DNA from: Escherichia coli
GTDB taxonomy: Bacteria; Pseudomonadota; Gammaproteobacteria; Enterobacterales; Enterobacteriaceae
NCBI RefSeq assembly: GCF_001677475.2
Contig: NZ_CP015229.1
Direction: 5' to 3' (one strand)
Length of the DNA stretch: 64,000 nucleotides
Of this stretch, positions 21,543 through 21,950 are shown one piece after another. Made by a program: the position numbers and the translations under genes. Positions within the stretch are counted from its first letter, which is position 1. Every line of letters begins with the position of its first letter. Below the pieces are notes generated by a model. It had not been told where the DNA came from, did not search any database, and worked only from the letters and a program-made list of their open reading frames with translations.

Positions 21543-21950
21543 ATGAAAATGGTTGAAGTTGTTGCCGCCATCATCGAACGTGATGGCAAAATTTTACTCG
21601 CGCAACGCCCCGCGCATAGCGATCAGACGGGATTATGGGAGTTTGCCGGTGGTAAAGTCGAGCTGGATGAAAGCCAGCAGCAGGCGTTGGTGCGTGAGTT
21701 ACGCGAAGAATTGGGCATCGAAGCAACTGTTGGTGACTATGTTGCCAGCCATCAGCGAGAAGTGTCGGGGCGGATTATCCATCTTCATGCCTGGCACGTA
21801 CCCGACTTCCACGGGACGTTACAGGCACATGAACATCAGGCGCTGGTCTGGTGCTCACCTGAAGAGGCGCTGCAATATCCGCTGGCCCCTGCTGACATTC
21901 CACTATTAGAGGCGTTTATGGCTTTACGCGCCGCCAGACCAGCGGATTAG
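21543..21950 (+). CDS. nudG: Nudix CTP pyrophosphohydrolase
   Basis: ORF track 135 aa; Nudix box GGKVELDESQQQALVRELREELGI. Confidence 0.85.
   Translation: MKMVEVVAAIIERDGKILLAQRPAHSDQTGLWEFAGGKVELDESQQQALVRELREELGIEATVGDYVASHQREVSGRIIHLHAWHVPDFHGTLQAHEHQALVWCSPEEALQYPLAPADIPLLEAFMALRAARPAD

Follow-up and report, generated by a model that had tools for sequence, protein, structure and literature searches.

Two convergent genes, nudG and ynjH, share the last bases of their coding sequences in a 64,000-nucleotide stretch of Escherichia coli DNA (contig NZ_CP015229.1), the whole of which is called the window here. Are both genes real, and what keeps them interlocked? The overlap is already annotated and published and was hence known beforehand. 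As a discovery it matters little, being present in reference annotations, used as an illustration and catalogued among the E. coli excludons. New are its conservation across Enterobacteriaceae, the codon-phase asymmetry, the constraint on the YnjH Val88 codon and on the stop codons, and an estimate of the run-on length expected by chance.

Anatomy of the overlap and identity of the two genes

The nudG coding sequence (21543..21950, plus strand) starts with ATG and ends with TAG at 21948-21950. The ynjH coding sequence (21916..22188, minus strand) starts with GTG at 22188 and ends with TAA at 21918-21916. In the raw sequence, both stops are the first in-frame stops of their frames. Read from the sequence, the dual-coding overlap covers 35 bp on both strands, 21916..21950. 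The first-pass annotation had placed it there exactly to the base, in agreement with the ORF list, the raw sequence and the K-12 and RefSeq annotations. With shared 3' bases on opposite strands and two real reading frames, it is a convergent (tail-to-tail) coding overlap. On the plus strand it runs from the last two bases of NudG F125 to D135 (F M A L R A A R P A D), followed by TAG; on the minus strand from the last two bases of YnjH T80 to P90 (T N P L V W R R V K P), followed by TAA. First codon positions face each other, nudG position 2 faces ynjH position 3 and nudG position 3 faces ynjH position 2. Because of this pairing, every ynjH-silent change falls on the second base of a nudG codon, and every nudG wobble change on the second base of a ynjH codon.

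The gene order at the locus is ynjF-nudG-ynjH-gdhA. E. coli K-12 MG1655 has the same genes, frames and 35-bp overlap without structural difference (nudG, b1759, 1841490..1841897; ynjH, b1760, 1841863..1842135). Between window and K-12, NudG is 96% and YnjH 100% identical. The pair has been used to illustrate overlapping genes on ribosome-profiling tracks (GWIPS-viz 2018). The PGAP/RefSeq annotation of the closest genome carries the same 35-bp overlap, and the complete E. coli genomes listed match the DNA of the locus at 97-99% identity. Of 5426 complete E. coli genomes, 5414 contain a 1051-bp stretch with the locus at a coverage of 80% or more, nearly always with at least 95% identity.

NudG is a sanitiser of oxidised CTP and also hydrolyses (p)ppGpp when over-expressed. 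The 135-residue protein of the window is a pyrimidine (d)NTP / 5-hydroxy-CTP diphosphatase. In the translation, the Nudix box GX5EX7REUXEEXGU is intact at residues 37-59 (G37, E43, R51 E52 L53, E55 E56, G58 I59). The Pfam NUDIX profile scored 78.6 bits. The NCBIfam equivalog NF007834 matched residues 1-135 of 135 with 263.5 bits, above the cut-off of 156, and assigns the protein to this family. Residues 1-135 also match PDB 2RRK, 'CTP pyrophosphohydrolase' (E = 1e-83), for which the full 135-residue chain was solved. An AlphaFold model (mean pLDDT 93.6) predicts a last helix at 118-130 and has low confidence for residues 131-135. A sigma-54 site listed with nudG as its downstream gene lies inside ynjE, 1.3 kb off, and is irrelevant.

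YnjH has 90 amino acids. Its N-terminal segment (...LIALA|NP) resembles a signal peptide, judged from the translation, and is followed by a DUF1496 domain with four cysteines. Residues 33-89 match positions 1-53 of the 53-position Pfam profile (PF07383) with 85.1 bits against a cut-off of 20.2, which places YnjH in this family; the NCBIfam models gave no match to YnjH. Among 409 homologues of about 90 amino acids, the four cysteines are invariant and the C-terminus ...STNPLVWRRV, also given as ...TLSTNPLVWRRVKP, is nearly so. Substitutions in the non-overlapping part of ynjH show coding periodicity (0.38/0.23/1.10 bits at positions 1/2/3). The ynjH RNA depends on FliA, with 29 units in the presence and 2 units in the deletion of fliA, and the gene has a FliA ChIP-seq peak (PMC4183435). 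The Salmonella counterpart STM1300 is also transcribed by FliA (bioRxiv 10.1101/2020.09.09.289983). The gene is also displayed in ribosome-profiling tracks (PMC5753223). Confirmation of ynjH as an expressed protein, called for in the first-pass annotation, exists in print: mRNA and protein were detected, and both are reported as lowered at 42 C (PMC6551532). Mutants in ynjH were recently enriched among low-c-di-GMP mutants (PMC13031359). Both nudG and ynjH are genuine protein-coding genes that are separately expressed.

A Shine-Dalgarno sequence, AAGGAG, precedes ynjH at 22200-22195 (minus strand) and is conserved. Further upstream, a candidate sigma-28 (FliA)-type promoter occupies 22223..22250 on the minus strand, with TAAAGTTA at 22250-22243, a 12-nt spacer and ACCGTTAT at 22230-22223. 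In comparison to the consensus TAAAGTTT-N11-GCCGATAA, the arrangement TAAAGTTA-N12-ACCGTTAT matches at 12 of 16 bases and has a spacer that is one base longer. Its position is identical to RegulonDB ynjHp (supplementary file 5, PMC4183435), and most genera retain the motif some 62 nt before the start codon. By homology, transcription would start near 22216. Table 2 of PMC4183435 prints another FliA motif for ynjH, TAACGTTATTGTCTCTGCTACTGATAAC, for which the window has an A in place of G at 22223. This motif sits on the plus strand (22200-22227) and points to gdhA instead of ynjH. High scores for it are confined to E. coli-like sequences, and what the genera share is the motif on the ynjH sense strand.

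Conservation of the overlap in Enterobacteriaceae

The conservation was assessed with one genome per species in the best 80 of 134 matches, loci that encode YnjH relatives and are all from Enterobacteriaceae. In 74 of these 80 species-level loci, which belong to related species and do not represent independent events, nudG and ynjH are convergent and overlap. Most genera (Salmonella, Citrobacter, Enterobacter, Lelliottia, Kluyvera, Buttiauxella, Atlantibacter, Trabulsiella and others) have 41 shared bp; 16 of the 74, E. coli and some others, have 35, and one has 44. In one Citrobacter amalonaticus, an earlier stop shortened the overlap. The NudG length is accordingly 132, 135, 137 or 138 amino acids across the loci. 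Since the sample consists of Enterobacteriaceae, the best 80 of 134 matches, the age of the overlap deduced from it is a lower bound.

Six of the 80 loci lack the standard overlap (L010, L013, L054, L058, L064 and L067). L010 has a probable frameshift and L067 no NudG match at the ynjH locus. In L058 (Pluralibacter), the region is rearranged with nudG elsewhere, and NudG ends with ...PLLDAFITAKR without a trace of the ALRAARPAD tail. In L013, L054 and L064, nudG is absent or decayed, yet YnjH retains ...STNPLVWRRV. L013 (Trabulsiella guamensis) has a remnant nudG ORF at 3091-3351 of the locus, of which only the N-terminal MLKTIDVVAAII is left, beside an intact ynjH. It thus represents a natural loss of nudG without change in the YnjH C-terminus. 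In L054 and L064 (~3270-4190), xthA converges on ynjH in place of nudG, with gaps of 98 and 3 nt and without overlap. The intervening region was deleted or rearranged in these genomes, because xthA lies about 8 kb away in E. coli.

Two records carry unexpected labels. L003 is a 'Citrobacter MAG' contig (DXKH01000006); the four proteins that its locus encodes share 95-100% identity with their counterparts in the E. coli-like window. L053, a contig labelled Chryseobacterium sp. 18061, bears a typical Enterobacteriaceae ynjH-nudG locus. Both labels probably reflect contamination or mislabelling of public records.

The length of the overlap requires no special explanation. In 46 neighbouring K-12 genes, 4.65% of the codons in this antisense frame are stops, with a median open run of 18 codons. 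A stretch of 11-13 codons stays free of stops with a probability of 0.54-0.59 (0.59 for 11 codons). A run-on of 11-13 codons is no longer than chance gives. In the 50 kb of K-12 that align with the window, two of six convergent pairs overlap. Unlike the length, the persistence across genera is the notable aspect of this locus. It is due to the strong conservation of the YnjH C-terminus.

Asymmetric constraint on the shared codons

The per-site entropy was calculated for 74 aligned sequences. With the window, 75 sequences carry the overlap; L077 was left out because it fitted poorly in the ungapped alignment. In the part that codes only for YnjH, positions 1, 2 and 3 have 0.38, 0.23 and 1.10 bits. 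The nudG-only part has 0.65 bits at position 1, 0.46 at position 2 and ~1.46-1.47 at position 3. In the overlap, ynjH position 1/nudG position 1 has 0.21 bits, ynjH position 2/nudG position 3 also 0.21 bits and ynjH position 3/nudG position 2 0.76 bits. Hence the wobble sites of nudG are frozen in the overlap (0.21 versus ~1.46 bits outside, Mann-Whitney p = 1e-5), and the most variable phase is the third position of ynjH, the second position of nudG. The bases of the overlap are governed mainly by YnjH. The synonymous sites of ynjH vary somewhat less in the overlap than elsewhere in the gene (0.76 versus 1.10 bits, p = 0.07, n = 11), so that the NudG tail or RNA might add some constraint.

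At the amino-acid level, conservation of the NudG tail is similar to that of the 32 residues before it (0.76 versus 0.78), as would be expected if ynjH freezes the tail. The substitutions within NudG 129-133 are nearly all second-position changes that are silent in ynjH: R129 to P, H or L, A130 to D, G or V, R132 to T or I, and P133 mostly to L or Q. The nudG stop also follows the ynjH codons. TAG at codon 136 occurs only if YnjH Thr80 is encoded by ACT and followed by a codon beginning with A (16 of 74; overlap of 35 bp). Otherwise, the stop is TGA or TAA at codon 138, formed by bases 2-3 of the Ile or Leu codon 78 and base 1 of Ser79 (overlap of 41 bp).

Traces of NudG selection are located at the beginning of the overlap. 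The YnjH Val88 codon GTA (21925..21927, minus strand) has its third base opposite the middle base of NudG Leu128 (TTA). Among the 74 species, this codon is GTA in 64 and GTG in 10, never GTC or GTT, either of which would generate TGA or TAA at nudG codon 128. In all Val codons of the four genes at the same loci, GTA accounts for 13% and GTC plus GTT for 38%. As its stop codon, ynjH has TAA in 73 of the 74; TAG, by which the invariant NudG Phe125 would become Ser, does not occur. The avoidance of GTC and GTT at Val88 and the preference for the TAA stop indicate that NudG 125-128 is under selection. Constraint from both sides is hence limited to some four codons, NudG 125-128, and the remaining NudG tail (129-135/137) is a tolerated passenger. 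The first-pass annotation had proposed coding interactions between the genes. This holds in the evolutionary sense, as entropy and codon tables reveal that both frames constrain the shared bases.

The structurally important C-terminal helix of NudG ends almost exactly at the ynjH stop, where the F125 codon overlaps TAA. Past F125, the nudG frame continues opposite the best-conserved stretch of ynjH (..TNPLVWRRVKP), up to the first stop that the ynjH codons permit. Removal of the overlap would require a truncation of the NudG helix or a change in conserved YnjH residues. The arrangement is frozen across the sampled Enterobacteriaceae because the YnjH C-terminus is under strong purifying selection.

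Transcript ends, rival explanations and related systems

Each mRNA must extend into the partner gene, because there is no intergenic space, and overlap of the transcripts follows necessarily if both mRNAs include their own stop codons. The 3' ends of the two mRNAs would then be complementary over at least 35 nt. A terminator scan (region 21300-22500) detected no intrinsic terminator near the nudG and ynjH stops (21463-22500); its lone match lies inside ynjF and is at chance level. An Rfam scan of 20500-24000 gave no match at E <= 1. Single-sequence folds of both 3' regions were not more stable than shuffled sequences (z +1.45 and +0.37). RNAalifold with 20 species per 3' region yielded weak helices built from coding bases that do not vary, and the covariation was negligible (terms of -0.83 and -0.22). 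A perfect 9-bp inverted repeat, ATCCGCTGG/CCAGCGGAT (~21876-21884 and 21939-21947), brackets the ynjH stop and was rejected as chance. It stems from the use of CCG CTG for Pro-Leu by both genes, on opposite strands, and was judged coincidental since it is not conserved in other genera, in which NudG Pro112 varies to D, A or E. No mapped 3' ends of nudG or ynjH were found in the material searched from Adams et al. 2021 (eLife 62438), TERMITe (PMC12207403), ExcludonFinder, Conway et al. 2014 and PMC6551532. The transcripts may end non-canonically, by Rho, collision or processing.

Overlapping transcription of the pair has been published. It is one of 165 convergent excludons present in at least 50% of 58 MG1655 transcriptomes (ExcludonFinder, NAR 2025, PMC12288877 Table 1), a count based on coverage overlap only, which is near-automatic for physically overlapping coding sequences. 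The first-pass annotation had read antisense interactions into the overlap. Its transcriptional part is supported by this catalogue; as an implication of the overlap it was overstated, given the lack of a terminator and of a conserved RNA structure, and a run-on of the frame suffices.

The window holds another convergent overlap, so that nudG-ynjH was correctly counted as the second one: cho (3568..4455, plus strand) converges on ves (4415..5053, minus strand) with 41 shared bp. The convergent list of PMC12288877 also contains cho-ves, as well as ynjE-ynjF. Like ynjH, ves is a published FliA-dependent gene (PMC4183435). The plus-strand partners cho and nudG both act on DNA damage or damaged nucleotides. 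Further FliA-regulon units in the ExcludonFinder convergent list are flgN, ycgR, trg, modC and cvrA, a listing that carries no enrichment statistic.

Very probably, nudG and ynjH form a genuine tail-to-tail overlap that is frozen by the constraint on the YnjH C-terminus, with the NudG tail as a passenger and without regulatory benefit. We infer that it persists as a frozen accident of constraint between tightly packed genes and not for a regulatory gain. An annotation artefact, in which ynjH is not real or one stop is mis-assigned and no true coding overlap exists, has next to no probability. The small size of YnjH (90 aa), the GTG start, the lack of a known function and the missing NCBIfam match are what such an artefact might look like, but the DUF1496 match of 85 bits, the 409 homologues with their nearly invariant C-terminus, the coding periodicity of substitutions, the conserved Shine-Dalgarno sequence and sigma-28-type promoter motif, and the RNA, protein and ribosome-profiling data contradict it. 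For nudG, the end-to-end match of the 135-residue chain to NF007834, the solved structure 2RRK and the fact that both stops are the first in frame do the same. The idea of an artefact, and with it the reservation of the first-pass annotation that ynjH might not be a real gene, is refuted by domain, homologue, expression and structure evidence. It is also very improbable that the overlap is an actively selected dual-coding module, kept for the NudG tail, with two functional and co-adapted C-terminal peptides. The Val88 avoidance and the TAA preference, the slightly reduced synonymous variability of ynjH (p = 0.07) and a NudG helix predicted to reach residue 130 would fit such a module. Yet NudG 129-137 takes radical replacements (Arg to Pro, His or Leu; Ala to Asp, Gly or Val), the tail varies in length (132, 135, 137 or 138 aa), it has an unrelated 5-residue end when nudG is not beside ynjH (L058), and the last five residues have low model confidence.

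A regulatory excludon is the rival with the most to recommend it and is nevertheless unlikely. A FliA-driven ynjH transcript would run antisense through nudG, and vice versa, and collision or RNase III would cause mutual repression and couple NudG to motility. The membership in the core set of 165 convergent excludons (PMC12288877) and the strong FliA dependence of ynjH agree with this, as does the FliA-dependent partner in cho-ves. There is no intrinsic terminator between or just after the stops, and read-through into the partner is therefore unavoidable. Against it, the coverage criterion is satisfied almost by construction for overlapping coding sequences, and no report of reciprocal expression turned up in the literature searched. 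The text and supplements searched of PMC4183435 do not name nudG as differentially expressed, which is weak evidence, and at 29 units ynjH is modestly expressed. The RNA shows neither a conserved structure nor covariation, and protein-coding constraint fully explains the sequence pattern. A bolder version, in which the overlap is the core of a conserved FliA-controlled antisense switch with ynjH read-through lowering NudG, and the same logic possibly at cho-ves, is more doubtful still. If it were true, the motility state would tune nucleotide-pool and DNA-damage functions through convergent transcription.

The locus, read as an overlap frozen by YnjH, is a worked example of how a convergent overlap is maintained: YnjH dictates the sequence, and the NudG tail is passive save for one Val codon and the choice of stop. 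Whoever deletes or recodes nudG or ynjH has to take account of the 35 bp, which the published ynjH knock-out primers already do. The change of Val88 from GTA to GTC, silent in ynjH, is a ready-made tool for truncating NudG.

The excludon concept was defined in Listeria, and its classical cases are long antisense transcripts with demonstrated reciprocal expression. Unlike in these, what is reported for nudG-ynjH is an overlap of coverage, and it lies inside coding sequences; with convergent excludons it shares the arrangement as opposite-strand neighbours with overlapping transcripts (PMC12288877). Bidirectional intrinsic terminators between convergent genes offer another comparison. Here too, the genes converge and both transcripts would end in the same short region, but nudG-ynjH has neither a G+C-rich hairpin flanked by A/U tracts nor an intergenic space. 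Bacterial tail-to-tail overlaps in general likewise have a short 3' run-on of a length typical for the antisense frame and one partner that dominates the constraint. The nudG-ynjH overlap differs from them in being kept over many genera, which is explained by the unusually conserved C-terminus of YnjH.
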